DNA of 39,760 bases from a virus (Duplodnaviria > Heunggongvirae > Uroviricota > Caudoviricetes): the IMG/VR virus record IMGVR_UViG_2711768002_000014; one strand, 5' to 3'. Made by a program: the position numbers and the translations under genes. How positions within the stretch are numbered: position 1 is the first letter of the stretch; each line of letters opens with the position of its first letter. Below are positions 1 to 14,701 of the stretch, in pieces. The notes under the pieces were generated by a model. It had not been told where the DNA came from and did no database searches. It saw nothing but the letters and a program-made list of their open reading frames with translations.

Positions 1-573
1 ATGTTTTGCGAAGAAAAAGTAGCTCAAATGGCTGCATACCTACTTCTTAAGCGAGGTGGGCGCATGGCATATCTGAAATTGATGAAGCTGCTCTATCTGT
101 CTAACCGCAAGTCGATTTTGAAGCATGGCAGGATGATCGGCGAAGATAGCCTTTACTCTATGAAATTTGGTCCAGTCATGTCGAATACGCTGAACTTGAT
201 TCGTGGTAAGGCTGAAGGTATTGGTGACTACTGGTACAACCTGATAGAGACGAACGGGCATGATGTGTTGTTGCGTTCAGATCCGAGGGAAATGGATGCA
301 GACGAGGTCTTTGATGAGTTGAGCCGTGCAGATATCCGGATTTTAGATGAAATCTATTCTCTGTATGGGCATATGAACCGATTTGATCTCGCAAACATGA
401 CGCATTTAGAAAGCGTTTGTCCAGAGTGGCACAATCCTGGCAATTCTCGTAAGCCTATAGACCTGAAAGAAATGCTGATCAGTGAGGGTAAAAGCGAGGA
501 TGAGGCTAATCGTATAATTGGCAAAATGGAAGAATCTCAGAAACTTAAGGAATTTTCTTTGCAATTATCATGA
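1..573 (+). CDS. Panacea-domain (DUF4065, GepA/SocA-like) phage-associated protein; putative antitoxin
   Basis: 190-aa ORF starting at window base 1; motifs AAYLLLKRGG, YLKLMKLLYL and FGPV resemble remembered DUF4065 signatures; stop overlaps the next ORF start (ATGA at 570-573). Confidence 0.5.
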   Translation: MFCEEKVAQMAAYLLLKRGGRMAYLKLMKLLYLSNRKSILKHGRMIGEDSLYSMKFGPVMSNTLNLIRGKAEGIGDYWYNLIETNGHDVLLRSDPREMDADEVFDELSRADIRILDEIYSLYGHMNRFDLANMTHLESVCPEWHNPGNSRKPIDLKEMLISEGKSEDEANRIIGKMEESQKLKEFSLQLS

Positions 574-989
574 CGGATTATCAGCCATACAGGAAAGGAA
601 CTGTGCTTGCCCCAACTGGGCCATGCAATCATCTTCATGTGATTTGTAATGATCCTGTTTATTACCCCGTTAACGATTGTTATTGTGTTTTAGTTGTTAA
701 TATTTCTAGTATCAAGGATGGTGTCCCCCACGATCCGTCTTGCGTCTTGAATTCTGGTGATCATCGCTTTATCAAGCATCCAAGTTATGTTGTTTACGCT
801 GAAGCTATAATTTGGCGAGTGGATAACATGGTTAGAAAGCAGCGATCGGGTGAGATTTCCGTTCATGATGATATGCCAGAAGCTACATTCAATAGAATTC
901 TGGACGGTTTTGATATATCTGATGAAGTTACGCCAAAGAACCTTAAATTTAAAAATAAATATTGCGTATCATCTATTGATGATGAGTAA
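570..989 (+). CDS. hypothetical protein translationally coupled to the Panacea protein; candidate toxin/effector partner
   Basis: 139-aa ORF whose ATG overlaps the upstream stop; no recognisable domain; Cys/His-containing soluble protein, no TM segment. Confidence 0.4.
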   Translation: MTDYQPYRKGTVLAPTGPCNHLHVICNDPVYYPVNDCYCVLVVNISSIKDGVPHDPSCVLNSGDHRFIKHPSYVVYAEAIIWRVDNMVRKQRSGEISVHDDMPEATFNRILDGFDISDEVTPKNLKFKNKYCVSSIDDE

Positions 990-1028
990 ACAACAGGAAT
1001 TGTTTCGGTATAGCTTCTGGAGTTTTCT

Positions 1029-1202
1029 ATGGAAGATCAAAAAGCAACCAAGCCACAGGTTAAGTTCGACACAATGAAAGCATTCGCAGGTATGGGTGCT
1101 GCTGTTGAAGTTCTGATGAAGGCTGCTCCTAATGCGTTCACTCACGCTACTGTCTCTGGTAAAGAGCAGCAGGGTAAGCTTCGTCGTCGCAAAGCAGCAT
1201 GA
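1029..1202 (+). CDS. small hypothetical protein (57 aa)
   Basis: Below the ORF-track cutoff; GGAG about 8 nt upstream of ATG 1029; codons of highly-expressed E. coli type (ggt, gct, cgt, aaa); followed directly by a terminator. Confidence 0.3.
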   Translation: MEDQKATKPQVKFDTMKAFAGMGAAVEVLMKAAPNAFTHATVSGKEQQGKLRRRKAA

Positions 1203-1221
1203 TCATAGCTGGTGCTTTTTG

Positions 1222-1247
1222 AAAACCCGCCTTTAGGCGGGTTTTTT
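1222..1247. terminator. bidirectional rho-independent terminator
   Basis: aaaacccgcc-ttta-ggcgggtttttt: GC stem with A-run upstream and T-run downstream, between convergent plus and minus genes. Confidence 0.6.
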
Positions 1248-1249
1248 CT

Positions 1250-1531
1250 TTAGTGATGTTCTTTGCCCTTCTGTTTGCCTGTTCTGACCTGTTCCCACTC
1301 GATACGTCCTTCTTCTCGTCTTTTGTCTATGTATTCCGCAAGATCCTGAATATTGATGCAACGTTTTGCTTTTTGTGATGTACCGATGCGATATGTAGGT
1401 ACAGGCAACTTACAAGCGTTTGCTTTTGCTTCTGCTGTGGCTGGACTCATACCAAAGTATTTTTGACTAACTGCTGAGAGTTCAATGTTTGGGGTATTGA
1501 ATTCAGCCATCAGTAAAAACAAGGTATTCAT
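1250..1531 (-). CDS. PrtN-family / excisionase-like winged-helix DNA-binding protein
   Basis: 93-aa ORF; resembles remembered PrtN/Xis-like small proteins (YFGMSPATAEAKA...LPVPTYRIG); last gene of the leftward operon. Confidence 0.45.
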   Translation of the reverse strand: MNTLFLLMAEFNTPNIELSAVSQKYFGMSPATAEAKANACKLPVPTYRIGTSQKAKRCINIQDLAEYIDKRREEGRIEWEQVRTGKQKGKEHH

Positions 1532-1567
1532 ATCATTTCTCCATCATAACCGGCTGCACCCGGTGAG

Positions 1568-2362
1568 TTACTTATTCATTTCAATAATATTATTTTCTAT
1601 CATTGATTTATTTAAAACCAAAGAAGGAGCAAGATGGTTGTCTATTTTAAACAATGCATAACTTTTAAACTGTTGGTGATATCCGTAACTAATAAGGATG
1701 CTAGAAAAATCTCTTAATTCATCTTCTTTTAAAAAATTAAAATGAAATGGGTTGTCACCATTTATGAACAATGAAACATCTATTATGCAGTATTTCTCTC
1801 CGTTGTCATTTGCATAGAAAAAAATATAAGACATTCTGTTTGTTAAGACAATGCCATTAAATTTTCTTATGTCTGTAGCTATTTTGTTTTCCATGTTTGG
1901 TGCTACATATTTATTTTCAGAAATACATTTAATTTCATCTCCAGATGTCGTGATTATATAAAAATGAAACTTATCAGAAATATCTAACTTAACTACGCCA
2001 TCATTATTGTAAAGGCTGCTAAATTTTGGTGGTTCAACTTTTAAAGAATCATAGTTCTTTAAAAGAAGAGGGGAGTCAAATTTAATAACTTGTAGTATCC
2101 CTTTACCTTCAACCTCCATATTGATTGAAGATATAGCAATTGCATTATCTCTTTTATTATTCAGGATTATGGTTGATATATGCATGTCATATATTCTACT
2201 TGCATTTGCTGAATACGACACTGTCACCTTTTTTGATATTTTTTGCACGCCAAAATATATAGTGAAGGCAGCGGCAAGAATAGATAAGAATTTAATGTCA
2301 AATAAGGACCATAGCCACATTAGTTGCTCAATTGCTTCAGAGTTAATCATTTGCTTTACCAT
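1568..2362 (-). CDS. hypothetical membrane-anchored protein, AT-rich accessory gene
   Basis: Long ORF in a strongly AT-rich stretch (about 1560-2500); N-terminal hydrophobic segment WLWSLFDIKFLSILAAAFTIYFGV; start uncertain (ATGs at 2401, 2362, 2350). Confidence 0.5.
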   Translation of the reverse strand: MVKQMINSEAIEQLMWLWSLFDIKFLSILAAAFTIYFGVQKISKKVTVSYSANASRIYDMHISTIILNNKRDNAIAISSINMEVEGKGILQVIKFDSPLLLKNYDSLKVEPPKFSSLYNNDGVVKLDISDKFHFYIITTSGDEIKCISENKYVAPNMENKIATDIRKFNGIVLTNRMSYIFFYANDNGEKYCIIDVSLFINGDNPFHFNFLKEDELRDFSSILISYGYHQQFKSYALFKIDNHLAPSLVLNKSMIENNIIEMNK

Positions 2363-2538
2363 TATCGCTGTAATACAACACATGTGTGTATATATACGCA
2401 ATGCAATTATTTTGCAAGTGCTTCATTTACTATCAATAGCTACGTCACGTTATTGTTTAATGGTTCTTTATAGGGGCGGCAATAGTTAAAATTATCGCTT
2501 CCGTAAATGCCCCCGCAGGGGCATTTGCAGTAATGAAA

Positions 2539-3363
2539 TCAGGCGGTGAAAGTACCAATAAAGGTTTCTACTTTGCTGTCTTTGAATTTCTCAACAAGCA
2601 GATCACGAAATTCGTTAGCCATTTCTTCCTGTACCGCTTCCAGCTGAATAATGCGCAGAACCAGTACAGGACGATCGCCAGTGATAATGCTGAGGCGTAA
2701 TTTAAACGGACGTTCTTTCAGACCTTCAAACGGAACGCATTTAAATTCAAATGCCACTGGCATAATGTCTTTGGTCTTCGCTTCGACAGACTCCATCAGG
2801 GAGCGTTTGCCGCTGAAGTCATTATCTTCAAAATCAGCGGTCTGGTTCGCTTCAATTGTGATTTTACGGATCGCCGCAGCCGCTTTGGTTGCCTGAATGG
2901 CGTCACCATTAGCATCAAAGCCCACAAGGTAGTCGGCCCAGTCTTCAATCCATTCTGCCAGTGACTTCTGGGAGTTACGCTCGCCATTAACAGACAACAG
3001 AGCAGAGAACGGAGCTGTCTTTTTCAGTTTGAGAGTGGCGGTGTTATCTGCGTGACCTGGTTCATCAATAGTACCCAGGTTAAGAACACTGACGGCACGC
3101 ATATTATCAGCATCGATAAAGCAGCGGGTGCCTTCATCTGCAAGATCTTTAGAATAACGAGTAAAGTCATCGATGCTGGCAGTGGAAAGCGCACCACGGA
3201 AACGGAAACGATTTAAATTTAATTTTTCCAGATCATGAATGCGGAAATTCTCAGGCAATGCCACAGCATCGGCACCAATCTTACTGATAATTTCATTAAC
3301 ACCCTGAGCAGAAATAAGGGCATGGATTTGATTAATTGCGGTTGCGTCTAAGTTCTGAGACAT
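2539..3363 (-). CDS. YfdQ-like (DUF2303) conserved prophage protein
   Basis: 274-aa ORF, same length and gene-order context as remembered CPS-53 YfdQ; typical GC and codon usage. Confidence 0.55.
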
Positions 3364-3428
3364 AATAAGTCCTCACTATATAAAGATATTCAGTGATGAG
3401 ATAAATAATCGGTTAATTAAGAACGATA

Positions 3429-3791
3429 TTAATGACCTGCTGCGCGGAGTTTTCCGTCAGGTTCACCGGCAAGAGTCAGTAATTGTCCCTGGTCTTCCTG
3501 CAGAATAGTCAGGCGACCACCGCGATTGACATACATCGGCGTTTCGGTGGTGTCTTCTTCGGAAATTTTCCCGCGGTTAGTCGGGCGAACATATGAGAGT
3601 TTGTGTTTGATTTTCACACGGTTCTCATCAAATGGTTCGATTTCCAGGTTGAGTGAGACCTTACCTTTGGTTTTCGTGTTCATCACACCGGAAGCGACTT
3701 CACTGAGAACTGCGCCGATTTTGGTTTCAAATACGCCGCCGTCCAGCTCCCCAATAAATGCCTGCACATCAGTACTGCGTTCGCTAGCCAT
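3429..3791 (-). CDS. YfdP-like conserved prophage protein (120 aa)
   Basis: ATG at 3789-3791 (minus) preceded by AGGAG about 8 nt upstream; the N-terminal extension in the track ORF is Cys/Arg-rich and unlikely to be coding. Confidence 0.5.
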   Translation of the reverse strand: MASERSTDVQAFIGELDGGVFETKIGAVLSEVASGVMNTKTKGKVSLNLEIEPFDENRVKIKHKLSYVRPTNRGKISEEDTTETPMYVNRGGRLTILQEDQGQLLTLAGEPDGKLRAAGH

Positions 3792-3811
3792 TTTGCTGCT
3801 CCTAATCATAT

Positions 3812-3975
3812 CGACCCTGCAAGGTCGGTTGGTTTCTCCACAAAACAGAGAAGAACACCTGCGGTGGCAGCCGCCCGGATGGATTTGGTTATGAGCCCGT
3901 CGTCCGGTGATGCTCTTCTCTGTTTTGTAAAAAGAGCGGTACCAGCCGGAAGCAAGTGTACAAACTGGTACCGCC
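3812..3975 (-). promoter_or_regulatory. structured 5' leader of the leftward transcript (multiple stem-loops)
   Basis: 14-bp perfect inverted repeat caaaacagagaaga (3841-3854) / tcttctctgttttg (3914-3927); 10-bp inverted repeat gcggtaccag (3945-3954) / ctggtaccgc (3966-3975); cgacc..ggtcg at 3812-3828. Confidence 0.3.
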
Positions 3976-4415
3976 AAAGCAGTGGCTGTTGTGGTGACCG
4001 GTGCTGATCTCCGGCTTGCGGTTATTTCAGACTCTCACGGGCGTTTAATTGCCCCGCCGAACAGCTCTTTTCCGCATTAGCTGCAATGTCTTTCGCGCAT
4101 CAGCCTGCGCATTCACCACAACGCTGAGAGCACTTAGCCAGTTACGGCACCACACTTTGTCGCGGTTCCATAAATGTCCTCATCGTTGCACCCTGGTCTC
4201 TTCCCAGGCGTCAAACCGAATCGCCACGCTGGTTAGGCGTCTTATCAGCATCATCATTGACTTGCACATTCCGGCTACCTGGTTTGTTTGCCCGAGCAAG
4301 GAGTGGATTGTCCCCTTTAACGTCCCCAGACCGCTAACGACGCATGTGCCATACGCCGTGTTACAACCAAATTTTGTTTAATCTTGCCTGTGCTGTGTTT
4401 CTTTTAGATACATTA

Positions 4416-4432
4416 TGTATCCCAAAGGTACA
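4416..4432. promoter_or_regulatory. putative left operator (OL-like) half-site pair TGTATC-N5-GGTACA
   Basis: Same motif as the palindrome between repressor and cro; lies just beyond the repressor 3' end, where a pL operator is expected. Confidence 0.4.
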
Positions 4433-4443
4433 TTGTCAAGTAT

Positions 4444-4465
4444 AAAAAAACCTGCCGAAGCAGGT
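4444..4465 (-). terminator. rho-independent terminator downstream of the repressor gene
   Basis: cctgc-cgaag-cagg hairpin flanked by an A7 run (a T-run on the minus-strand transcript). Confidence 0.5.
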
Positions 4466-4477
4466 TATAAATATTGA

Positions 4478-5152
4478 TTAGGCCTTTATTATGTATCTTC
4501 TTGGTTTTCCTGAGAAAATCACTGTACCAATTATAGAGCAATTACCGTTAATCTTAATGTAAGGCTCAGGCCAGTTTGGGTTTAATGCTTTGAGATAACG
4601 CTGTGTTCCATCTTCTATCAACCGCTTGAAGGTGGTTTCGCCTGTATCGTGCATCAATGCAATAACGTCGTCACCGTGGCAGGCAGGGACTTCAGGATCA
4701 ACAAAAATCATGTCTCCCGGGCGGTACTCATCAATCATTGAATCACCAATCACCCGCAAGATATAAGTCATTTCGCCACAGGGTACAGGGCAGGGATAAG
4801 TTTCTGCTGTGCTCAAATCAACCTCAGAATAGCCAACTTCTTTCCATGCTCCGGCCTGTACCCATGATATGACAGGGACTAACGTTATTTGTTTGTTAGT
4901 GATTGAAACGTCAGGTTTTTTTGTGATGTTCGTTGTCTGGTGTTCTTGATCAAGCCATCCGACAGGCAGGTCGAAACATTTTTCGATGTGCCGTGCCATG
5001 CTGTCACCGATATTTTTAGTTGCACCATCTCCCATAAACCTGCTGGTCTGGGTTGGCTCGCGATCAATCATGGTGGCAAAGGAAGAATTCCCGCCAACAC
5101 CATCTCTCAGTTTTCTGGCGTTAGACCGCCGGATGTCATGGACTGTTTTCAT
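4478..5152 (-). CDS. CI-like prophage repressor (N-terminal HTH, C-terminal S24 LexA-like peptidase)
   Basis: 224 aa; C-terminal domain with the GDSM serine motif and a downstream Lys (FKRL); divergent from the cro-like gene across an operator-containing spacer. Confidence 0.85.
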   Translation of the reverse strand: MKTVHDIRRSNARKLRDGVGGNSSFATMIDREPTQTSRFMGDGATKNIGDSMARHIEKCFDLPVGWLDQEHQTTNITKKPDVSITNKQITLVPVISWVQAGAWKEVGYSEVDLSTAETYPCPVPCGEMTYILRVIGDSMIDEYRPGDMIFVDPEVPACHGDDVIALMHDTGETTFKRLIEDGTQRYLKALNPNWPEPYIKINGNCSIIGTVIFSGKPRRYIIKA

Positions 5153-5169
5153 AAAGAAATTAAAACCTT

Positions 5170-5186
5170 TGTACCGATAAGGTACA
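5170..5186. promoter_or_regulatory. operator: perfect palindrome TGTACC-gataa-GGTACA
   Basis: 17-bp dyad in the 90-bp repressor/cro intergenic region. Confidence 0.5.
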
Positions 5187-5219
5187 AGTATCTTGAAGGT
5201 TCATCTCAATCATGTAATA

Positions 5220-5236
5220 TGTATACCGGAGGTACA
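5220..5236. promoter_or_regulatory. second, weaker operator-like site TGTATA-ccgga-GGTACA
   Basis: Matches the half-site motif with two mismatches; overlaps the cro RBS (GGAGG). Confidence 0.3.
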
Positions 5237-5242
5237 TATTGT

Positions 5243-5443
5243 ATGAAAGCGTATTGGGACTCTTTAACCAAAGAACAGCAGGGTGAGTTGGCCGGAAAAG
5301 TTGGCTCAACACCAGGCTACTTACGGCTGGTTTTCAATGGTTATAAAAAAGCCAGTTTTGTGCTGGCTAAAAAACTTGAGCAATGCACGTCAGGTGCAAT
5401 TACGAAATCTGACTTAAGACCGGATATCTATCCGAAAGATTAA
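5243..5443 (+). CDS. Cro-like regulator (YdaS-like HTH)
   Basis: 66 aa; GGAGG 10 nt upstream of ATG 5243; C-terminal LRPDIYP resembles remembered YdaS-type proteins; positioned opposite the repressor. Confidence 0.65.
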   Translation: MKAYWDSLTKEQQGELAGKVGSTPGYLRLVFNGYKKASFVLAKKLEQCTSGAITKSDLRPDIYPKD

Positions 5444-5474
5444 CAGAACACCTTCAATTTTTAACCACAGAACG

Positions 5475-6038
5475 ATGAGGCTAACCGTGGGTAAGCATCA
5501 CTGGAAAGTAGAAAAACAGCCTGAGTGGTACGTGAAAGCTGTCAGAAAAACTATCGCGGCGTTGCCGGGGGGTTACGCTGAAGCTGCTGAGTGGCTGGAT
5601 GTAACAGAGAACGCTTTATTCAACCGCCTTCGTGCAGATGGCGATCAGATTTTCCCGCTGGGATGGGCAATGATTTTACAGCGCGCGGCTGGCACTCACT
5701 ACATTGCGGATGCTGTCGCACAGTCTGCTGGTGGGGTGTTTGTATCGCTTCCTGAAATTGAGGAAGTAGAGAACGCCGATATAAACCAGCGCCTGCTGGA
5801 AGTCATCGAACAGATCGGGAGTTACTCAAAGCAGATTCGTTCGGCAATCGAAGATGGGGTAGTGGAGCCACACGAGCAGACAGCAATTAATGATGAGTTG
5901 TATCTGTCAATTTCGAAGCTCCAGGAGCATGCAGCACTGGTCTACAAAATCTTTTGCGCTCCAGAAAAGAGTGACGCCCGCGAGTGTGCAGCTCCGGGCG
6001 TCGTGGCGTTTTGTGTCTGTGGAGAAACTAACGCATGA
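5475..6038 (+). CDS. CII-like / YdaT-family regulatory protein
   Basis: 187-aa ORF immediately after cro; resembles the remembered phage CII (CP76/YdaT) family; start uncertain (weak RBS). Confidence 0.4.
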   Translation: MRLTVGKHHWKVEKQPEWYVKAVRKTIAALPGGYAEAAEWLDVTENALFNRLRADGDQIFPLGWAMILQRAAGTHYIADAVAQSAGGVFVSLPEIEEVENADINQRLLEVIEQIGSYSKQIRSAIEDGVVEPHEQTAINDELYLSISKLQEHAALVYKIFCAPEKSDARECAAPGVVAFCVCGETNA

Positions 6039-6871
6039 ACAGTTTAACGGCAAATAACCGTTTGTCGCAACAGCTGGTGGTCAGCGTCGCTGAACACCTG
6101 TTGTTACGGCATGAATGCAGATTACCAAATCACCTGGCTGTAAGTAACCACAGAGAACTTTACCTGACTGTGGGGGGCGAGTTGTGCAGGAACTTAACCG
6201 CTGGTTTCGTGACGGAAGAGGACTTTATGTTCATGTTATTCGTTGGGAGCCAGAAACACAGCGCGTTATCTATCTTCGCAAAGACTACCCGCATGAGTGC
6301 TTTAGTCCTTTGTGGAAATTCAGGCGTGATTTTGTTGAGTGTGAAGGACCACCAGCACATTGATTCTGCCATTCCGGGACGTTACACTGTTCAGGCACCT
6401 TATAAAGCGGGTGCCGGGATTGGCGTCCTGGAATTGATCAAGGCGATATATGACGCGCCAGCGTCTTTTTTATCGTCCGCATTTGCTCACATCAAAGTTA
6501 TGGTGGGCTGGGCGGGGGCATCGAAAGATGCGCCGGTTTCCTTGATCACCGGTTACGCCAACCCCGTTCAGTTCACCACCAGCGAAATTGGCGTTTCCGG
6601 TGGTGGAAGTATTTCACCGATCAAGGAGGCTGCCATCATGGCTACTGTCCCAGCCCTCACTCGTCTGAATGATGAAGACTTACATAAACTCAGTTATGTA
6701 ACAACTGCACTACGTGCTCTGCGCAAGGTAACTCTTTCGGATCCGCAGGCACATCAGGTTCTGGTAGAAACCCTTCTTAACTTGCAAGCTGAACGTATTC
6801 GTCTGGCGGATAAGGCTAATTTTCATATTCACCGTCTCCTGAATATCAGCGGAGGGCATCGTCATGCTTAA
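6035..6871 (+). CDS. hypothetical protein; gene model uncertain
   Basis: 278-aa ORF with ATGA overlap to the upstream gene; contains an internal AAGGAGG-ATG (6623-6640) and an alternative frame that reads as protein between 6148 and 6363. Confidence 0.3.
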   Translation: MNSLTANNRLSQQLVVSVAEHLLLRHECRLPNHLAVSNHRELYLTVGGELCRNLTAGFVTEEDFMFMLFVGSQKHSALSIFAKTTRMSALVLCGNSGVILLSVKDHQHIDSAIPGRYTVQAPYKAGAGIGVLELIKAIYDAPASFLSSAFAHIKVMVGWAGASKDAPVSLITGYANPVQFTTSEIGVSGGGSISPIKEAAIMATVPALTRLNDEDLHKLSYVTTALRALRKVTLSDPQAHQVLVETLLNLQAERIRLADKANFHIHRLLNISGGHRHA

Positions 6872-7100
6872 TCCGTTGATCCTCAATATTTGCCGTTTGC
6901 TTCAGCGTAAAAAAATATCAATTCCTACAGTTGGGCAGTGGTACACCACGCCTGCAGGGCATGTTCTACGTGTTAGCCTGGTTGACCGTGAATGCCAGAA
7001 GGTGATTTGTGAACCGCTGGGCCGTAATTACCGCGTCAGTATGCCGCTTATAGCCTTTCGCTCCGGAAAAAACATGAAGCATCTCGGAGGTGCAGCATGA
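6864..7100 (+). CDS. small hypothetical protein (78 aa)
   Basis: ORF overlapping both neighbours' ends; no recognised domain. Confidence 0.3.
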   Translation: MLNPLILNICRLLQRKKISIPTVGQWYTTPAGHVLRVSLVDRECQKVICEPLGRNYRVSMPLIAFRSGKNMKHLGGAA

Positions 7101-7915
7101 GTATGGAGCTGATGGTTAAAGCGATGAAAATTCGAGTGGGTAATCCATTGCGAAAACTGGTTCTGATCAAGCTGGCTGATAATGCCAGCGATCAGGGTGA
7201 GTGCTGGCCCAGCTACCAGCATATTGCTGACCAGTGCGAAATTAGCAAACGTTCTGTGATGAATCATATTGCGGCCCTTTGTGAGTCCGGGCTGGTAAAA
7301 AAAGTCACCCGGAAAGGTGAAAAAGGTAACTCAAGTAATATCTATCTCCTTCATCTGGATGGTGCAGGAGATTCACTAGGGGGTAGTGCAAATAATTCAC
7401 TATCTGGTGCAGCAAATTCACCAGGTAGTGCAGGAGTTGCACCAGGGGGTAGTGCAGGAGATTCACCCAGAACCAGTCACTCTTTTGAACCAGTCAAAGA
7501 ACCAGTCAATGAACCAATAGCTGTTGGTGCATCAGTTGATGAGTCCGTGCGAGTTCGTTCAAACCGACCGGAATACTCTCCGGAGTTTGAGCAGGCATGG
7601 CTGGCATATCCCAAACGTGCTGGTGGCAATTCAAAATCTGCAGCCTTCAAAGCCTGGAAAGCCCGTTTGAATGAGGGAGTAAACCCCGAAACCATGCTGG
7701 AAGGTGTGAAACGCTACGCGGGATGGGTATCTGCGATGGGTAACAGCGGCACACAATTTGTGAAACAGGCTGTCACGTTCTTTGGTCCGGATCGTCATTT
7801 CGAAGAATTCTGGGAAGTTCCTGCGGTATCTGCAGCCAGACGCGAGGACCCGTACTTCAAAGCCAGTTACGACAACGTGGACTACAGCCAGATCCCGGCA
7901 GGATTCAGGGGGTGA
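7097..7915 (+). CDS. replication initiator-like protein (N-terminal HTH of phage O / HTH_36 type) with Gly/Ser-rich linker
   Basis: N-terminus LRKLVLIKLADNASDQGECWPSYQHIADQCEISKRSVMNHIAALCESGLV is typical of phage replication-initiator wHTH domains; internal DNA direct repeats. Confidence 0.55.
   Translation: MSMELMVKAMKIRVGNPLRKLVLIKLADNASDQGECWPSYQHIADQCEISKRSVMNHIAALCESGLVKKVTRKGEKGNSSNIYLLHLDGAGDSLGGSANNSLSGAANSPGSAGVAPGGSAGDSPRTSHSFEPVKEPVNEPIAVGASVDESVRVRSNRPEYSPEFEQAWLAYPKRAGGNSKSAAFKAWKARLNEGVNPETMLEGVKRYAGWVSAMGNSGTQFVKQAVTFFGPDRHFEEFWEVPAVSAARREDPYFKASYDNVDYSQIPAGFRG
7361..7520. repeat. iteron-like direct repeats inside the initiator gene (candidate ori)
   Basis: Five degenerate ~20-bp units (GGTAGTGCAGGAGATTCACC-like) followed by four GAACCAGTCA units. 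Confidence 0.4.
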
Positions 7916-8406
7916 TCATGAGTCTTTTGAATGAAGTTCAGAAATTCATTGAAGCCCATCCGGGGTGTACTTCCGGAGACATTGCGGATGCTTTTGCAGG
8001 TTACTCACGGCAGCGCGTTCTGCAGTCAGCAAGCAAGTTACGTCAGAGTGGGCGTGTGGCTCACCGTTATGAAGGAGATACACGCAGACATTTCCCACGC
8101 CTGACTGAGAGAGCGCAGGAGCCGGAACCACAACCAGTTCGTGAAACCAGACCTGTGCGCAATTTCTATGTCGGCACTAACGATCCCCGGGTGATTTTGT
8201 GCCTGACCCGCCAGGCGGAAGAACTGGAGTCCAGGGGCTTATACCGTCGTGCTGCAACGGTGTGGATGGCGGCATTCCGTGAAAGCCACTCCCAGCCAGA
8301 ACGAAACAATTTTCTGGCGCGTCGTGAGCGGTGCTTACGGAAAAGCAGCAAGCGCGCTGCATCGGGTGAAGAGTGGTATCTGTCAGGGAATTACGTGGGG
8401 GCTTAA
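7912..8406 (+). CDS. PerC-like transcriptional activator family protein
   Basis: C-terminal LTRQAEELESRGLYRRAATVWMAAF matches the remembered PerC signature (LE..GLWRRAA..W). Confidence 0.5.
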   Translation: MIMSLLNEVQKFIEAHPGCTSGDIADAFAGYSRQRVLQSASKLRQSGRVAHRYEGDTRRHFPRLTERAQEPEPQPVRETRPVRNFYVGTNDPRVILCLTRQAEELESRGLYRRAATVWMAAFRESHSQPERNNFLARRERCLRKSSKRAASGEEWYLSGNYVGA

Positions 8407-9059
8407 TGAGTAATAAATATTGCCAGGCGCTGGTGGAGCTGCGGAACAAACCAGCCCATGAACTGAAGGAAGTGGGCGATCAGTGGCGCACGCCGGATAA
8501 CATTTTCTGGGGAATTAACACCCTGTTTGGCCCGTTTGTTCTGGATCTGTTCACTGATGGTGATAACGCCAAATGTGCCGCTTATTACACTGCGGAAGAC
8601 AACGCGCTGGCGCATGACTGGTCTGAACGTCTTGCGGAGCTTAAAGGTGCTGCCTTTGGTAATCCCCCGTACAGCCGCGCCAGTCAGCATGAAGGGCAAT
8701 ACATCACCGGCATGCGTTACATCATGAAACATGCCAGTGCCATGCGTGATAAGGGCGGACGCTATGTTTTCCTGATCAAAGCTGCCACCAGCGAAGTGTG
8801 GTGGCCGGAAGATGCAGATCATATTGCTTTTATTCGCGGGCGTATTGGTTTTGAACTGCCTGCCTGGTTTATCCCGAAGGACGAGAAGCAGGTGCCGACA
8901 GGCGCTTTCTTCGCTGGTGCTATTGCTGTTTTCGACAAGACCTGGAAGGGACCGGCAATCAGCTACATCGGGCGCGATGAACTTGAGGCATGTGGTGAGG
9001 CGTTTCTGGCGCAGGTTCGCCAGCAGGCGGAAAAACTGGTCAGGGAGATGGCGGCATGA
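8406..9059 (+). CDS. phage Dam-type N6-adenine DNA methyltransferase
   Basis: NPPY catalytic motif (FGNPPYSR); TAATG overlap with the upstream gene. Confidence 0.8.
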   Translation: MSNKYCQALVELRNKPAHELKEVGDQWRTPDNIFWGINTLFGPFVLDLFTDGDNAKCAAYYTAEDNALAHDWSERLAELKGAAFGNPPYSRASQHEGQYITGMRYIMKHASAMRDKGGRYVFLIKAATSEVWWPEDADHIAFIRGRIGFELPAWFIPKDEKQVPTGAFFAGAIAVFDKTWKGPAISYIGRDELEACGEAFLAQVRQQAEKLVREMAA

Positions 9060-9382
9060 CGACGTTAACTCAATGCCAGCAGCAGGTGCTGGATATGCTG
9101 ATTTCTTACCAGAAAGAACGTGGCTTCCCGCCAACCAATCAGGAGGTGGCAACCATGCTGGGATACCGTTCAGTGAATGCAGCGGTGGAACATCTTCGCG
9201 CACTGGAGAAAAAAGGCGTCATCACGATAAAGCGTGGCATGGCCCGGGGTATCACTCTTCATACCGCGGTGAAGGACGACGACAGCGAGGCGGTCGGGAT
9301 TATCCGCTCACTGCTTGCCGGTGAGGAAAACGCCAGGCTGCGTGCAACCCACTGGTTACATGAGAGAGGCCTGAAAGTATGA
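9056..9382 (+). CDS. LexA DNA-binding-domain-only protein
   Basis: N-terminus QQQVLDMLISYQKERGFPPTNQEVATMLGYRSVNAAVEHLRALEKKGVITI parallels the LexA N-terminal wHTH; only 108 aa, no S24 peptidase domain. Confidence 0.65.
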   Translation: MTTLTQCQQQVLDMLISYQKERGFPPTNQEVATMLGYRSVNAAVEHLRALEKKGVITIKRGMARGITLHTAVKDDDSEAVGIIRSLLAGEENARLRATHWLHERGLKV

Positions 9383-9768
9383 AGCTGATCCTGCCTTTCC
9401 CGCCCAGCGTGAACACGTACTGGCGACACCCCAACAAAGGGGCATTTGCTGGTAAGAGCCTGATAAGCGCGGCGGGGCGAAAATTTCAGAGCGCGGCGTG
9501 CGCAGCAATAGTTGAGCAGTTACGTCGTCTGCCAAAACCAACGTCGGCACCTGCTTCAGTGGAGATCGTGTTGTTTCCTCCGGATAACCGGATCCGCGAT
9601 CTGGACAACTATAACAAGGCGCTGTTTGACGCCCTGACCCACGCGGGGGTGTGGGAAGACGACAGCCAGGTGAAAAGAATGCTGGTGGAGTGGGGACCGG
9701 TTATCCAGAAAGGGAAGGTCGAGATCACTATCAGTAAGTATGAGAAACCGGCGGGTGCAGCCGCCTGA
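9379..9768 (+). CDS. rusA: RusA Holliday-junction resolvase
   Basis: 129 aa; conserved RusA motifs (LPFPPSVNTYWRH..., DLDNYNKALFDALTHAGVWEDDSQV). Confidence 0.85.
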   Translation: MKLILPFPPSVNTYWRHPNKGAFAGKSLISAAGRKFQSAACAAIVEQLRRLPKPTSAPASVEIVLFPPDNRIRDLDNYNKALFDALTHAGVWEDDSQVKRMLVEWGPVIQKGKVEITISKYEKPAGAAA

Positions 9769-9787
9769 TCAAGAGGAGAAACGAAGT

Positions 9788-10597
9788 ATGAATAATCTGA
9801 TGGTCATTGATGGTATTGAAGTTCGTCGTGATGCTTATGGGCGTTACAGCCTGAACGATCTGCACAGGGCAGCCGGGGGAGAACAAAAAAACCGCCCGAA
9901 ATACTGGCTCTCCAATAAGCAAACCTGTGAATTGATTGAACAACTTTTCACCGAGGGTGGAATTCCGCCTCTGGAACAAAATCAACCAGTTAGCGTCATT
10001 AATGGCGGAAATAACCAGGGGACGTATGTCTGCAAAGAACTGGTGTATGCCTATGCAATGTGGATCAGCCCGTCATTCCATCTGAAGGTGATCCGTACTT
10101 TCGACATGGTAACCAGCGCACCGGAAAAATTATCCGGACAGGCTGCTGACAAGATGCAGGCTGGCGTGATCCTGCTGGACTTTATGCGCCGGGAATTAAA
10201 TCTGTCTAACTCATCAGTGCTTGGAGCCTGTCAGAAGCTTCAGGAGGCTGTTGGCTTACCGAATCTGGCACCGCGCTATGCCATTGATGCTCCTGCTGAC
10301 GCGCCTGATGGCTCAAGTCGCCCCACGCTGTCGCTGAGTGCACTGCTGAAGCAGTATGGTATCCGCCTGACGGCTAATCAGGCATATCACCAGATGGTGA
10401 AGCTGGGGATCGTTGAACAACGCGAACGATACAGCCGTACCGCGATTAACAACATCAAAAAATTCTGGTCGCTGACGGCGAAAGGCTGCATGTTCGGCAA
10501 GAACATCACCAGTCCTGCAAATCCGCGCGAGACGCAGCCGCATTTCTTCGAATCCCGATTCCCTGAGCTGTTAAAGCTGCTCGATACCGTTCATTGA
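9788..10597 (+). CDS. KilA-N domain protein
   Basis: AGGAG upstream of ATG 9788; N-terminal MVIDGIEVRRDAYGRYSLNDLHRAAGG is KilA-N-like. Confidence 0.7.
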   Translation: MNNLMVIDGIEVRRDAYGRYSLNDLHRAAGGEQKNRPKYWLSNKQTCELIEQLFTEGGIPPLEQNQPVSVINGGNNQGTYVCKELVYAYAMWISPSFHLKVIRTFDMVTSAPEKLSGQAADKMQAGVILLDFMRRELNLSNSSVLGACQKLQEAVGLPNLAPRYAIDAPADAPDGSSRPTLSLSALLKQYGIRLTANQAYHQMVKLGIVEQRERYSRTAINNIKKFWSLTAKGCMFGKNITSPANPRETQPHFFESRFPELLKLLDTVH

Positions 10598-10598
10598 G

Positions 10599-11594
10599 GT
10601 GACCGTGAGAGCACTACTGACCCCTGAAATTGCCCCGCGTATGGGGATCGTATTGTTCAGGCCAGGTTCAGAGCTGATGCCCCTGTTTATGCAGGGGCGT
10701 GTTCTGCTGGAGCCTGAGCCGGAACGTTATTCATCTTTCGCCAGTGGTGCCGTTCCGGCGGCATCACAACCGCTGGCGGATGATCCTGCCGTTCGGGCCG
10801 TGTTCCGCAATGAGGCAGTGATCCGTCGTGCTGGTGGCGTGGAATGTCTTGAAAGCTGGTTACTTCGTGAAAAAGGCTGCCAGTGGCCTCATTCCGACTG
10901 GCACAGCGAGAACATGACCACAATGCGACACGCTCCGGGCGCAATCCGTCTGTGCTGGCACTGCGATAACCAGCTGCGCGATCAGTTCACGGAACGGCTG
11001 GAATCAATGGCAACGGATAACTGTGCCCGCTGGGTGTTGTCTGTTGTGCGTCGGGATCTCGGTTTTGATGATAGTCACGTTGTGACAATGCCGGAACTGT
11101 GCTGGTGGCTGATTCGTAATGACCTGGCGGATGCCTTACCGGAAAGTGCAGCCCGTAAGGCACTGAGATTACCAAAGCCTGTTGTGCCGTCTGTCACCCG
11201 GGAAAGTGACCTTGTGCCTTCGGTTCCTGCCACCAGCATCATCCAGGATAAGGCAAAAAAGGTGCTGGCGCTGAAAGTGGATCCGGAGTCGCCGGAGTCT
11301 TTTATGTTACGCCCAAAACGCCGCCGCTGGGTTAATGAAAAGTACACGCGCTGGGTTAAGACACAGCCGTGTGCATGTTGTGGAAAGCCTGCTGATGATC
11401 CCCACCACCTGATAGGCCACGGTCAGGGTGGAATGGGTACAAAAGCGCATGACCTCTTTGTGTTGCCTTTGTGCAGAAAGCATCACGACGAGCTGCATGC
11501 GGATACCGTGGCATTTGAAGAGAAGTATGGCTCCCAGCTGGAGCTGATATTTCGTTTTATCGATCGTGCGCTGGCAATTGGCGTATTGGCGTAA
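10599..11594 (+). CDS. DUF968-family protein (YdfU-like) with C-terminal Cys/His cluster
   Basis: CACCGKPADDPHHLIGHGQGG...CRKHHDELH; immediately upstream of Q as in Qin; GTG start as given by the track, uncertain. Confidence 0.6.
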   Translation: MTVRALLTPEIAPRMGIVLFRPGSELMPLFMQGRVLLEPEPERYSSFASGAVPAASQPLADDPAVRAVFRNEAVIRRAGGVECLESWLLREKGCQWPHSDWHSENMTTMRHAPGAIRLCWHCDNQLRDQFTERLESMATDNCARWVLSVVRRDLGFDDSHVVTMPELCWWLIRNDLADALPESAARKALRLPKPVVPSVTRESDLVPSVPATSIIQDKAKKVLALKVDPESPESFMLRPKRRRWVNEKYTRWVKTQPCACCGKPADDPHHLIGHGQGGMGTKAHDLFVLPLCRKHHDELHADTVAFEEKYGSQLELIFRFIDRALAIGVLA

Positions 11595-11607
11595 GTGGAG
11601 AACGAGC

Positions 11608-12360
11608 ATGAACCTTGAAGCCTTACCAAAATATTACTCCCCAAAATCTCCAAAATTGAGCGATGACGCACCGGCGACAGGCTCAGGTGGTTTAACGATT
11701 ACGGATGTGATGGCTGCGCAGGGGATGGTGCAGTCGAAAGCACCGCTTGGGTTTGCCTTATTCCTGGCAAAAGTTGGTGTTCAGGATCCTCAATTTGCGA
11801 TTGAAGGTCTGCTCAATTACGCGATGGCACTGGATAACCCGACATTGAACAAATTGAGTGAAGAAACCCGGTTACAGATCATCCCTTACCTTGTGAATTT
11901 TGCCTTTGCTGATTATTCCAGGTCTGCGGCAAGTAAGGCTCGCTGTGAGCATTGTGCTGGTACTGGATTTCATAATGTATTGCGCGAAGTGGTGAAACAC
12001 TCCAGAAGCGGGGAATCTGTTATCAAGGAAGAGTGGGTGAAGGAACTATGTCAGCATTGCCATGGTAAGGGAGAAGTCAGCACAGCGTGCAGAGGGTGTA
12101 AGGGTAAAGGTATTGTCCTGGATGAAAAAAGAACCCGGCTTCATGGTGTGCCTGTTTATAAGATTTGTGGGCGTTGCAATGGCAACCGGTTTAGCCGTTT
12201 ACCAACCACACTGGCGCGGCATCATGTCCAGAAACTGGTACCGGACCTGACGGATTATCAGTGGTACAAAGGATATGCAGACGTTATTAATAAACTGGTT
12301 ACAAAGTGCTGGCAGGAAGAAGCGTATGCTGAATCGCAATTGAGAAAAGTGACAAGATAG
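11608..12360 (+). CDS. late-gene antiterminator Q (Qin QuuQ-like family)
   Basis: 250 aa; Cys-rich Zn-binding motifs (CEHCAGTG, CQHCHGKG, CRGCKGKG); GGAG upstream of ATG 11608; followed by a promoter and terminator. Confidence 0.75.
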   Translation: MNLEALPKYYSPKSPKLSDDAPATGSGGLTITDVMAAQGMVQSKAPLGFALFLAKVGVQDPQFAIEGLLNYAMALDNPTLNKLSEETRLQIIPYLVNFAFADYSRSAASKARCEHCAGTGFHNVLREVVKHSRSGESVIKEEWVKELCQHCHGKGEVSTACRGCKGKGIVLDEKRTRLHGVPVYKICGRCNGNRFSRLPTTLARHHVQKLVPDLTDYQWYKGYADVINKLVTKCWQEEAYAESQLRKVTR

Positions 12361-12391
12361 ATAATTTTCGCCGAAGATGTCGACGTGATAC

Positions 12392-12420
12392 TTGCATTTT
12401 TCAAAAAATATGGATAAGAT
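12392..12420 (+). promoter_or_regulatory. candidate late promoter pR' (-35 TTGCAT, 17-nt spacer, -10 TAAGAT)
   Basis: Near-consensus sigma-70 hexamers about 30 bp downstream of Q and about 45 bp upstream of the terminator. Confidence 0.45.
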
Positions 12421-12463
12421 TTTCTCAACGATGGGCCTTGTATGTCTACCGTTGGTAAATGTC

Positions 12464-12490
12464 AAAAACCCGCCGCTGAGCGGGTTTTTT
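12464..12490 (+). terminator. tR'-like rho-independent terminator
   Basis: aaaaacccgccgctgagcgggtttttt: GC stem plus T6. Confidence 0.7.
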
Positions 12491-12639
12491 GTGCCTGATG
12501 TCTCATGAAACTATGAAATGGATTGGTGCGTTAAACATTTTTTCTTATTATCTTTTAGATTTTGGAGAGATGGTTAACGTCTGTATTCCAGAAACTCGAT
12601 GGTTATTTAATAAATTAGTTTCAATGATGCTTCTAGGTT

Positions 12640-13065
12640 ATGACTGTAATGAAAAAGGTATTAATAGCAGCGATAGGTTTTTGTTTAGTTGGTTGTGCAG
12701 GTATGAAATTACCTGAGTATTCGCAAGTTAAAGCAAGTCCGTATTATACAGATTGCCGTGCGTTTGCCATGGATGTTTATAAAAATGATGGATACAGCAA
12801 AATTGCGAAAACTACTATCCTTAGCATGGATGATGTGAAAGCTAGATATATTGTGACAGGGTGTGTAGTTGCTATGGGGAAAAACACTGTAGAGGAAATC
12901 AAAGCTGATCTCTCTGCTAAAGGGAGTTCTTTTGGGCTTATCAGTGGAGCTTGTTCTAGTGCGGCATGTCGGGTTGATGTAGAGCAGCAAATGAACGCTT
13001 ATGTACTTGGTAGTTATTATGCTGCAAATAAAAAATTCCCGGATAAAATGAAAGCAGAGTTTTAA
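12640..13065 (+). CDS. moron lipoprotein
   Basis: Signal peptide with lipobox (LVGC AG) after MKKVLIAAIGF; AT-rich island between two near-identical terminators. Confidence 0.6.
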   Translation: MTVMKKVLIAAIGFCLVGCAGMKLPEYSQVKASPYYTDCRAFAMDVYKNDGYSKIAKTTILSMDDVKARYIVTGCVVAMGKNTVEEIKADLSAKGSSFGLISGACSSAACRVDVEQQMNAYVLGSYYAANKKFPDKMKAEF

Positions 13066-13142
13066 GCAAACCTTGTTTTCGATTATATGTCGAAGATAAA
13101 TGTTAGTAACGGCATAATAAGTAAATATATAGCTGTGATAGC

Positions 13143-13166
13143 AACCCGCCACTGAGCGGGTTTTTT
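13143..13166 (+). terminator. rho-independent terminator (near-duplicate of tR')
   Basis: aacccgccactgagcgggtttttt; differs from the 12464 terminator by about one base in the stem. Confidence 0.65.
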
Positions 13167-13264
13167 GTACCCGTAAACTTGGTGCAGTACAGTAAACACG
13201 CTGGTGGTCGTGAATACTGACTTTTTATCTTGCTGGCTTTTTAGACAAGAGTTATTGGTATGTC

Positions 13265-13492
13265 ATGTTAACCAGAAGGGAAAAAGACATGCTAAAACAG
13301 CAAGATATGACAGAAACCGCCGCCGCAGTCCTTCATTTCTTACCTGCTGACAAGTGGGTAACGCCACGCATGATGACGAGAACTACCGGAGTAAGCGAAG
13401 CCCGGTGCCAGTTAATACTGACTCAGTTAGTTCTGGCGGGTCTGGCGAAGGATAACGGCGGGTACGGGAATAAATTCAGACGCTGCCAGTAA
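13265..13492 (+). CDS. small putative winged-helix DNA-binding protein
   Basis: 75-aa ORF (alternative ATG at 13289 with AAGGGA RBS); HTH-like segment TPRMMTRTTGVSEARCQLILTQLVLAGL. Confidence 0.4.
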   Translation: MLTRREKDMLKQQDMTETAAAVLHFLPADKWVTPRMMTRTTGVSEARCQLILTQLVLAGLAKDNGGYGNKFRRCQ

Positions 13493-13642
13493 TGGCGGTT
13501 TCCTGCTGTGAAAATGGGCGGCTGGTGGGTGTTGGTAGCACCTGCCAGCCATTCGCTCATGCTTACTGGTCACAAGCGAACCACGGCCCACTGCTTTAGC
13601 GCAAAAGCAGAGTGAGCCTACCAGAGTTACGCTTACTGATCC

Positions 13643-14695
13643 ATGAAAAATACTGTAAAAATAAACAGTGTTGATTTAATCAACGCTGATTGCCTGCATT
13701 TTATTCAGTCCCTGCCTGATGATTCCATTGACCTGATTGTTACCGATCCGCCTTACTTCAAGGTGAAACCCAACGGTTGGGACAATCAGTGGAAAGGGGA
13801 CGAAGATTACCTTAAGTGGCTGGACCACTGTCTGGCCCAGTTCTGGCGGGTGTTGAAACCTGCCGGAAGCCTTTACCTGTTCTGTGGGCATCGCCTGGCA
13901 TCTGATATTGAGATCATGATGCGTGAACGTTTCAACGTGCTTAACCATATCATCTGGGCGAAGCCGTCCGGACGTTGGAATGGGTGTAATAAAGAAAGTC
14001 TGCGCGCATATTTTCCTGCCACAGAGCGCGTTCTGTTTGCTGAACATTACCAGGGGCCATATCGCGGCAAAAGTGACGGCTATGCGGCAAAAGAAAGGGA
14101 ACTCAAACAGCACATAATGGCACCGCTGATATCGTATTTCAGGGATGCTCGTGCCGAACTGGGTATAACGGCAAAACAAATTGCCGAAGCCACAGGTAAG
14201 AAAAATATGGTTTCCCACTGGTTTGGTGCCAGTCAGTGGCAGTTGCCGAATGAGGCTGACTATCGGAAGTTACAGGCACTGTTTTCCCGTATAGCGGCAG
14301 AGAAGTTTCAGGAACAACAACTGGAACAACCACACCACCAGCTGGTGGCATCTTATGATTCACTGAATCGTAAATATTCTGAATTGCTGGATGAGTTTAA
14401 ATCTCTCCGGCGCTATTTCTCCGTATCAGTCTCCGTGCCTTATACCGATGTCTGGATGCATAAACCCGTTCAGTTCTACCCGGGGAAACATCCGTGTGAG
14501 AAACCGGCGGATATGCTCAGGCAAATAATCAATGCCAGTAGTCGACCAGGTGATCTGGTTGCTGATTTTTTTATGGGATCCGGTTCCACAATAAAAGCAG
14601 CAATGGCGCTGGGGCGTCGGGCCTTAGGTGTTGAGCTTGAGTCAGAGCGGTTTAATCAGACAGTGAAAGAGATAAACGAGCTGGTGGGGAAATAA
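13643..14695 (+). CDS. orphan DNA methyltransferase (N6_N4_Mtase family)
   Basis: DPPY motif (IVTDPPYF) N-terminal and FxGSGS motif ([12 protein letters not shown]) C-terminal; no adjacent endonuclease ORF. Confidence 0.85.
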
Positions 14696-14701
14696 TCTGG
14701 T

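Follow-up and report, generated by a model that had tools for sequence, protein, structure and literature searches.

The 39,760-bp stretch of DNA deposited as IMG/VR virus record IMGVR_UViG_2711768002_000014 (the window) was a lambdoid prophage. Its replication initiator gene, which followed the cI, cII-like, and Ash/Rha genes in the early right operon, harbored a mid-gene array of five dyad-symmetric 15-bp repeats (iterons), together with a conserved 38-bp core and three 12-bp tandem units (Table 1). These DNA elements are described here, together with their counterparts in homologous loci, as a candidate replication origin.

The initiator displayed the layout winged-helix N-terminal domain (N-domain), disordered linker, and C-terminal domain (C-domain). 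It matched (i) Pfam HTH_36 (PF13730) at residues 17-67 (E=1.8e-11; 44.1 bits against a gathering cut-off of 25), which was present in all of its close database homologues, and (ii) PHROG 270 'replication initiation protein' (E=2.4e-88). In the AlphaFold2 (AF2) model, which had a mean predicted local distance difference test (pLDDT) score of 58.7 for the whole initiator, the N-domain (pLDDT 76-90) comprised helices 3-11, 17-28, 40-47, and 51-63 plus a beta wing at 67-85, with residues 51-63 (7247-7285) as the predicted recognition helix, and residues 91-157 were disordered (pLDDT <50). Foldseek with this model gave generic winged-helix matches alone (dimeric winged-helix regulators and the DnaD N-domain; E ~0.01). 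Sequence searches against solved structures gave weak winged-helix or DnaD N-domain matches only for the N-domain and no relative in PDB for the C-domain, which matched PHROG 26426, 3729, and 1701 ('DnaD-like helicase loader', C-terminal part).

The initiator DNA was 98.7-99.1% identical to 'replication protein' genes of Shiga toxin (Stx) 2c-converting phages (99.1% for the Stx2c phages' copy), mEp460, Ayreon, and SfV, and it was closely related to the cdtI and ST64B genes; its counterparts were SfV orf39, ST64B sb42, and the mEp460 'replication protein'. Near-identical genes were also carried by phages whose records were deposited as complete genomes (SfV, mEp460, and Ayreon among them), and the gene was found at >=80% coverage in 897/5426 complete E. 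coli genomes.

Table 1. Coordinates of the initiator gene, its DNA elements, and neighboring genes in the window (aa, amino acids; ORF, open reading frame)
Feature	Position	Strand	Sequence or product	Basis or remark
Replication initiator gene	7097..7915	+	272 aa	ORF, Pfam, PHROG
Winged-helix DNA-binding domain coding region	7097..7357	+	aa 1-87	AF2 pLDDT 76-90
Iteron 1	7362..7376		GTGCAGGAGATTCAC	
Iteron 2	7386..7400		GTGCAAATAATTCAC	
Iteron 3	7407..7421		GTGCAGCAAATTCAC	
Iteron 4	7428..7442		GTGCAGGAGTTGCAC	
Iteron 5	7452..7466		GTGCAGGAGATTCAC	Fixed distance from conserved core in all homologues
Conserved 38-bp core	7466..7503		CCCAGAACCAGTCACTCTTTTGAACCAGTCAAAGAACC (unbroken: CCCAGAACCAGTCACTCTTTTGAACCAGTCAAnGAACC)	Encodes P-R-T-S-H-S-F-E-P-V-K-E-P
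Three 12-bp tandem units	7487..7522		GAACCAGTCAAA / GAACCAGTCAAT / GAACCAATAGCT	Overlap core 3' part; candidate unwinding region
C-terminal domain	7562..7912	+	aa 156-272, motif FEQAWLAYPKRAGGNSK	PHROG, alignment
C-terminal nonapeptide	7886..7912	+	SQIPAGFRG	BLASTP 8/9 to DnaT end
cI-like repressor	4478-5152	-		
cII-like activator	5475-6038			
Ash/Rha-type protein	6035-6871			
Small ORF	6864-7100			
PerC-like protein (yfdN type)	7912-8406			

The five iterons, located in codons 89-124, shared the consensus GTG[C/A]A-N5-T[G/T]CAC (GTGMA-N5-TKCAC), which was dyad-symmetric at all 5+5 positions, and their start-to-start distances were 24, 21, 21, and 24 bp. Over both strands of the window, this pattern had these five matches only, all inside one 105-bp stretch; dinucleotide-preserving shuffles gave a mean of 0.31 matches, and 0/100 shuffles reached five. 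Tandem Repeats Finder identified period-21/24 arrays at 7382-7467 and a period-12 array at 7487-7516, the latter with 2.5 copies and 94% matches. The ~20-bp repeats that a preliminary description of this DNA had placed inside the linker of the initiator gene were thus found where it had put them, as five units (7362-7466), and they are real and far beyond chance. Together with the GAACCAGTCA repeats (see below), the iterons spanned codons 88-140, in a Gly/Ser/Ala/Pro-rich stretch between HTH_36 and the C-domain.

The sequence comparison was applied to homologous loci gathered from annotated phages, 80 bacterial genomes, and IMG/VR, giving ~80 distinct loci from Gammaproteobacteria; the genomes included Pseudomonas, Rahnella, Xenorhabdus, Photorhabdus, Shewanella, Marinomonas, Vibrio, Aeromonas, and Haemophilus. 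Three to seven GTG-N9-CAC units (269 in total) were present in the same linker in 59/80 distinct loci, a number not explicable by chance or by a peptide repeat because only ~0.03 units were expected per linker by chance. Positions lying outside the search pattern were also constrained, and symmetrically so: position 4 was C/A in 268, position 5 was A in 258, position 11 was T in 255, and position 12 was T/G in 268 of the 269 units, with the central five positions free to vary. The unit spacing was nearly always 21, 22, 23, or 24 bp, i.e., ~two helical turns.

The reading frame and the orientation of the units were not fixed. In 32 loci, one unit lay in a different codon phase, with a spacing of 23+22 rather than 24+21 bp, and the phase-shifted DNA encoded the peptide VVQEIHQG, versus SAGDSP in the usual frame; the Erwinia locus L045 had four copies of GTGACACAGAGTCAC in phases 1, 0, 1, and 1. 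There were 26 occurrences of the unit GTGCAGGAGATTCAC and 20 of its reverse complement GTGAATCTCCTGCAC, with both present within one array in four loci. Half-sites, spacing, frame changes, and orientation together indicated that the DNA rather than the peptide was conserved; the linker can accept whatever the DNA requires because the encoded peptide is predicted to be disordered. The units and the core (see below) were under selection at the DNA level, and they were always inherited together with the N-domain.

These data bear on the simplest alternative, namely that the repeats are a low-complexity, slippage-prone coding linker without any DNA function. The region did encode a predicted disordered linker, and near-identical E. 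coli proteins (242, 250, 272, 294, 296, and 302 aa) had between 1 and ~9 units, as slippage predicts; copy-number variants were P0001, P0003, P0020, P0024, P0028, P0041, P0042, L001:2501-3385, and L002:1501-2331, and the 12-mer number likewise differed in close relatives (one more in PhiR63_1 and P0018, one fewer in P0020). A coding linker does not, however, account for a motif that survived both frame change and inversion, for encoded peptides that were wholly different (SAGDSP, VVQEIHQG, and ESPAP), for half-sites that were kept at a spacing of 21-24 bp while center and amino acids varied, or for the frozen synonymous sites of the adjoining core, and this alternative is scarcely credible.

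Besides the GTGMA-N5-TKCAC class, three further specificity classes of units were recognized, all in the same register to the core: (i) GGGCA-N5-TGCCC in Min27/F451-type Stx phages and some Pseudomonas loci; (ii) TGCC-N7-GGCA in Salmonella S135 and Klebsiella RAH1; and (iii) TGTAGGCCCAGAAAGCAC in other Pseudomonas loci. Each unit class had its own recognition-helix sequence (S[KR]RSV[MIV]xH, xRSTVKxH, CSKSAV[RK]xH, and DRSTVR[KR]H). Between GTGCA/TGCAC and GGGCA/TGCCC, the change was symmetric across both half-sites, as would be expected from a dimeric reader co-evolving with its site. A nearby phage regulator (Ash/Rha-like, PerC-like, cII-like, or LexA-like) might instead bind the units, several DNA-binding proteins being encoded within 2 kb. 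Such neighboring genes differed or were absent in homologous loci that kept the array, the unit class followed the initiator's own recognition helix, and the array was always in cis with the initiator N-domain, all of which make binding by another regulator highly improbable.

The core lay directly after the last iteron and was kept in every specificity class. Its third codon positions were nearly invariant, with 9/11 at 91-100% nucleotide identity in 85 distinct loci (AAn and the final CCn varied), and a single codon was used per residue (AGA, ACC, AGT, CAC, TCT, TTT, GAA, CCA, GTC, and GAA) across 75-85 loci; for Arg, this codon was the rare AGA. The fraction of the top codon was 0.99 in the core versus 0.55 in 38 equally conserved winged-helix aa columns, which used all synonymous codons. 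Conservation of the core ended sharply at +34. In loci from GC-rich hosts, the core was the local AT maximum (0.59 versus ~0.40). One variant without the conserved core, P0041, may mark a replication-dead prophage.

The exact sequence GAACCAGTCA was found in the window at 7470, 7487, and 7499 only. Its first copy began at codon position 2 (encoding R-T-S-H), and its second at codon position 1 (encoding E-P-V-K). Four GAACCAGTCA repeats had been listed in the preliminary description; three of them were exact, and the fourth existed only as the degenerate GAACCAATAG at 7511. Nor do these copies form a second ordinary set of iterons, since they were instead part of the 38-bp element that was invariant across specificity classes.

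A search of IMG/VR by the core DNA pattern alone returned 98 distinct contexts, 97 of which had the HTH_36 N-domain in frame upstream and one of which looked frameshifted; none had the core apart from an initiator gene. Since 97/98 contexts had this N-domain, the core is a cis element tied to the N-domain and not to a particular host or a particular helicase loader.

The conservation of the core could have a reason other than origin function: it might act as a 'linker' for homologous recombination where modules meet, or as an RNA or translational signal. In the translational variant, a +1 frameshift at CCC-AGA would give a truncated protein of the DNA-binding domain only, with the hypothetical end …PEPVTLLNQSKNQSMNQ. 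Modules did exchange exactly at the core (see below), the core never occurred outside the gene, and ribosomes are prone to shift frame where CCC precedes the rare AGA codon. Locus L054 (Pseudomonas bharatica; ORF from 3001) encoded a 133-aa initiator version that crossed into the +1 frame inside the repeat array and ended in ...LHPEPVTLLNQ; it may be a pseudogene, or else it hints at frameshifting at the core CCC-AGA.

Recombination alone cannot, however, hold 38 bp identical, because flanking synonymous sites were saturated across Pseudomonas, Vibrio, Haemophilus, and enterobacterial phages. As for a signal in RNA, ~38 nt were conserved, far beyond the needs of a slippery site, and neither an Rfam match nor an unusual fold was found: an Rfam scan of 7000-8000 gave a sub-threshold miRNA match only, and the single-strand DNA fold of 7350-7530 was unremarkable (z = -1.34). 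L054 is one isolated example, possibly a pseudogene. A non-origin reason for the core is therefore very unlikely.

Taken together, the five dyad-symmetric sites and the 38-bp core probably constitute the replication origin of the prophage, located inside its own initiator gene, and the best-supported description of this arrangement is a lambda-style origin built with an initiator from another family, which is very widespread. Origin activity is inferred, as are binding by the initiator, unwinding of the core, and recruitment of the helicase, and the following course of events is proposed. Dimers of the N-terminal winged-helix domain would bind the five 15-bp iterons, which would all lie on the same face of the helix because they are ~two helical turns apart, and a nucleoprotein complex would form on the array, as with the lambda O-some. 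The complex would destabilize the adjoining core and 12-bp repeats (7466-7522), where the GC content of the locus is lowest in GC-rich hosts, and the C-domain would then recruit the replicative helicase. This recruitment would proceed in most relatives via the phage DnaC-like, lambda-P-like, DnaB, or primase-helicase protein of the adjacent gene. The window phage, being without a loader gene (see below), would have to use host DnaB-DnaC, possibly aided by a tail that mimics the final nonapeptide of host DnaT.

Several points weigh against an origin at this site. A literature search found no binding, unwinding, or origin-activity data for the HTH_36 initiator family and no paper describing an origin for it. 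The locus had no strongly AT-rich stretch like that of lambda, the AT content in 60-bp windows peaking at ~57-62% (7290-7380 and 7470-7530), no DnaA box (TTWTNCACA) was present within 14 kb of the site, and no IHF consensus was found near it. E. coli variants with just one or two units were common (P0042; P0028 on 64 contigs), meaning either that few sites suffice or that those prophages are replication-defective. The correlation between helix and unit class could partly reflect shared ancestry, and it is supportive rather than independent proof because sites and helix are physically linked in cis. Finally, the core may have a coding-linked role (e.g., RNA or translational), because it never occurred away from the gene. 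A promoter/terminator scan gave nothing inside the repeat region. Matches in a plasmid collection were ~40-kb phage-like 'plasmids' and were uninformative on origin function.

The lack of a strong AT-rich unwinding element and of a DnaA box at the locus would also suit a different role for the same sites, namely autoregulation or copy control by the initiator (transcriptional roadblock or handcuffing), with replication starting elsewhere in the genome. Initiators of iteron plasmids do use the same sites for control. The motif clustered nowhere else in the window, however, the array was always followed at a fixed distance by the conserved core with its local AT maximum, and the layout fitted that of established in-gene origins. 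It is thus unlikely that the units serve control alone, and an in-gene origin is preferred.

The gene following the initiator was classified in 56 homologues, where it encoded an IstB/DnaC-like protein in 22, a lambda-P-like protein in 15, and DnaB in one; in Min27, F451, S135, and SF6, the next gene encoded a primase-helicase. Given these neighbors, the initiator family holds the position of lambda O. The preliminary description had remarked on the lack of a DnaC/P-like loader downstream, and this observation was borne out: Pfam/PHROG annotation identified no helicase, loader, or primase gene in window positions 1-14,700.

The tblastn matches of the initiator fell into two sets, one covering the N-half (aa 1-138) and the other the C-half (aa 142-272). 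In the natural recombinant P0066, a class-B N-domain with class-B units was joined to a window-type C-domain exactly at the core. Such module swaps fell just downstream of the sites, so the N-domain and its sites stay together, and the C-domain in homologues is an exchangeable module paired with the helicase-loading partner.

The end of the initiator, SQIPAGFRG, matched the end of E. coli DnaT, SQIPPGFRG, at 8/9 residues in BLASTP, both being at the extreme C-terminus. No similarity to DnaT beyond the terminal nine residues was found in the BLASTP alignment, DnaT domains were not detected in a Pfam scan, and a search with the 40-aa tail against 1.84 billion representatives returned 20 matches, mostly fragments, with DnaT not among them. 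The same ~25-aa tail also ended two unrelated initiators with lambda-O-like C-domains (mEp460_4F5 and vB_EcoS-569R4; L174:3076-3102 and L175:3076-3102), and a third unrelated initiator, L025, ended in IPAGFRG. No obvious loader gene followed any of these three initiators. Relatives with the same C-domain but a DnaC-like neighbor ended otherwise, e.g., in ...DYGESDCNW.

In homologues with a DnaC-like loader (L004, L012, L015, L017, L032, L057, L077, and L081-L091), the tails were acidic with an aromatic last residue (…DYGESDCNW, …DGRANF, and …NGPAF), and they look like a different short docking motif.

The tail may simply travel with the downstream yfdN-dam-lexA-like-rusA module, because the last 76 nt of the gene (window 7840-7915, adjoining the yfdN/PerC-like gene) were present in 2718/5426 E. 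coli genomes versus 897 for the whole gene; the next genes of mEp460_4F5 and vB_EcoS-569R4 were this same set. In the literature on DnaT, no function was described for its terminal peptide. Helicase recruitment by DnaT mimicry is put forward as a hypothesis only. A wider proposal is that a very large gammaproteobacterial HTH_36 initiator family shares a universal 38-bp origin core that lies in the coding sequence in two reading frames and would be recognized by an invariant part of the initiator or serve as a single-stranded DNA/unwinding site, while the iterons diversify with the helix, and that a loader-less E. coli/Salmonella subgroup recruits the helicase by mimicry of the DnaT tail; this combination is conceivable but doubtful.

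Iterons inside the initiator gene are known from lambda O, P22 gene 18, and phage L gene 18 (PMC8022706). The window locus resembled the origins of lambda, phi80, P22, and phage L in several respects: (i) several ~20-bp direct repeats with an internal dyad and ~two-turn spacing lay in the mid-initiator linker; (ii) the repeat sequence differed between phages along with N-domain specificity; and (iii) a less variable segment adjoined the repeats, and an exchangeable C-domain was matched to the helicase loader (PMC8022706). The phi80 protein gp15 has annotated gp15-binding sites in its linker at 21-bp spacing. This phi80 gp15 was considered as a family member whose origin is already published and was rejected, since it was of the lambda O type, unrelated in sequence, and an analogue rather than a homologue. 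The likeness to lambdoid origins therefore concerns how the system would work and not family membership. The linker of another unrelated initiator, that of mEp460_4F5, showed a layout like that of the window locus, with a 23-bp repeat (5.4 copies) followed by a 12-bp repeat (3.2 copies) at L174:2436-2612.

The window locus differed from lambda in that (i) the initiator belonged to Pfam HTH_36 and had no Phage_rep_O (PF04492) match at E<=0.01; (ii) the units were 15-bp GTGMA-N5-TKCAC, and no ~80% AT block was present; (iii) the 38-bp core was conserved at the nucleotide level across hosts from Haemophilus to Pseudomonas; and (iv) the window phage had no P/DnaC partner gene. As to the lambda-like in-gene origin proposed in the preliminary description, this interpretation is supported by inference, but the initiator is not a lambda O homologue.

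The locus also resembled iteron-containing theta plasmids (pSC101, F, R6K, and RK2; Rep_3/TrfA) in having phased sites for a winged-helix initiator beside 12-13-bp repeats. In theta plasmids, 12-13-bp repeats lie in the region to be unwound, and the plasmid encodes no loader of its own but relies on DnaB-DnaC of the host. Plasmid iterons lie between genes, along with DnaA boxes and frequently IHF sites, while the sites in the window were intragenic, no DnaA box or IHF site was found, and the initiator had no Rep_3 match.

The initiator showed some resemblance to DnaD-type proteins of Firmicutes and their phages: the winged helix resembled the DnaD N-domain (PDB 2vn2 and 2v79 were among the matches), with a DnaD_N score of 24.3 bits, below the Pfam cut-off of 27, and the PHROG label of the C-terminal part was 'DnaD-like helicase loader', whereas no match to the DnaB_2/DnaD C-domain was found in Pfam or PDB, and the hosts were Gammaproteobacteria. 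In-gene origins are known in the DnaD-type group, e.g., SPP1 G38P and Rep proteins of lactococcal phages. The likeness to E. coli DnaT (primosomal protein i) lay in the near-identical last nine residues, without homology over the N- and C-terminal domains of DnaT; some database records label homologues of the initiator 'primosomal protein I'.

HTH_36 proteins have been described beside Rha/Ash proteins or primases in Stx phages of non-lambda type (PMC8951638). The window initiator agreed in protein family and gene position with the 'Eru' replication modules of Stx phages (HTH_36 in Eru5, 6, 8, 11, and 13), but its DNA elements form no part of the Eru scheme. The words iteron and origin of replication were absent from the Eru-module papers, and no origin was mentioned in the papers found on non-lambda replication modules of Stx phages.

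The principle of an in-gene origin is already known and would not surprise a specialist; what is added, in concrete and testable form, is a set of sites independent of frame and orientation, a universal 38-bp core, and a DnaT-like tail. The protein is the putative replication initiator of Stx2c-converting, cdt-converting, and Shigella serotype-converting phages, and how much toxin Stx phages produce depends on their replication. The defined cis element (five 15-bp sites plus the 38-bp core) would offer a concrete target for cloning the origin, testing incompatibility, and inhibiting replication. The initiator family offers a natural experiment in protein-DNA co-evolution, in which a disordered linker accommodates the same DNA sites in more than one frame and in both orientations. 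How a helicase is recruited without a loader can be approached through the loader-less variant and its DnaT-like tail; if the mimicry were true, a function would also be assigned to the C-terminal peptide of DnaT.

In the remainder of the early region, the PerC-like gene was followed by genes for Dam (8409-9059), a LexA-like protein, and RusA, and then for a KilA-N protein, a DUF968 protein, and Q. A second DNA methylase (N6_N4_Mtase) was encoded at 13643-14695, besides Dam. A terminator-like hairpin with a T-run was located on the minus strand at 7320-7305, inside the winged-helix coding region and just upstream of the iterons; it was weak and within the chance expectation of the terminator scan. 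A DUF2303 protein was encoded in the left operon (2539-3363), and a SocA/Panacea antitoxin-domain protein at the window edge (1-573).

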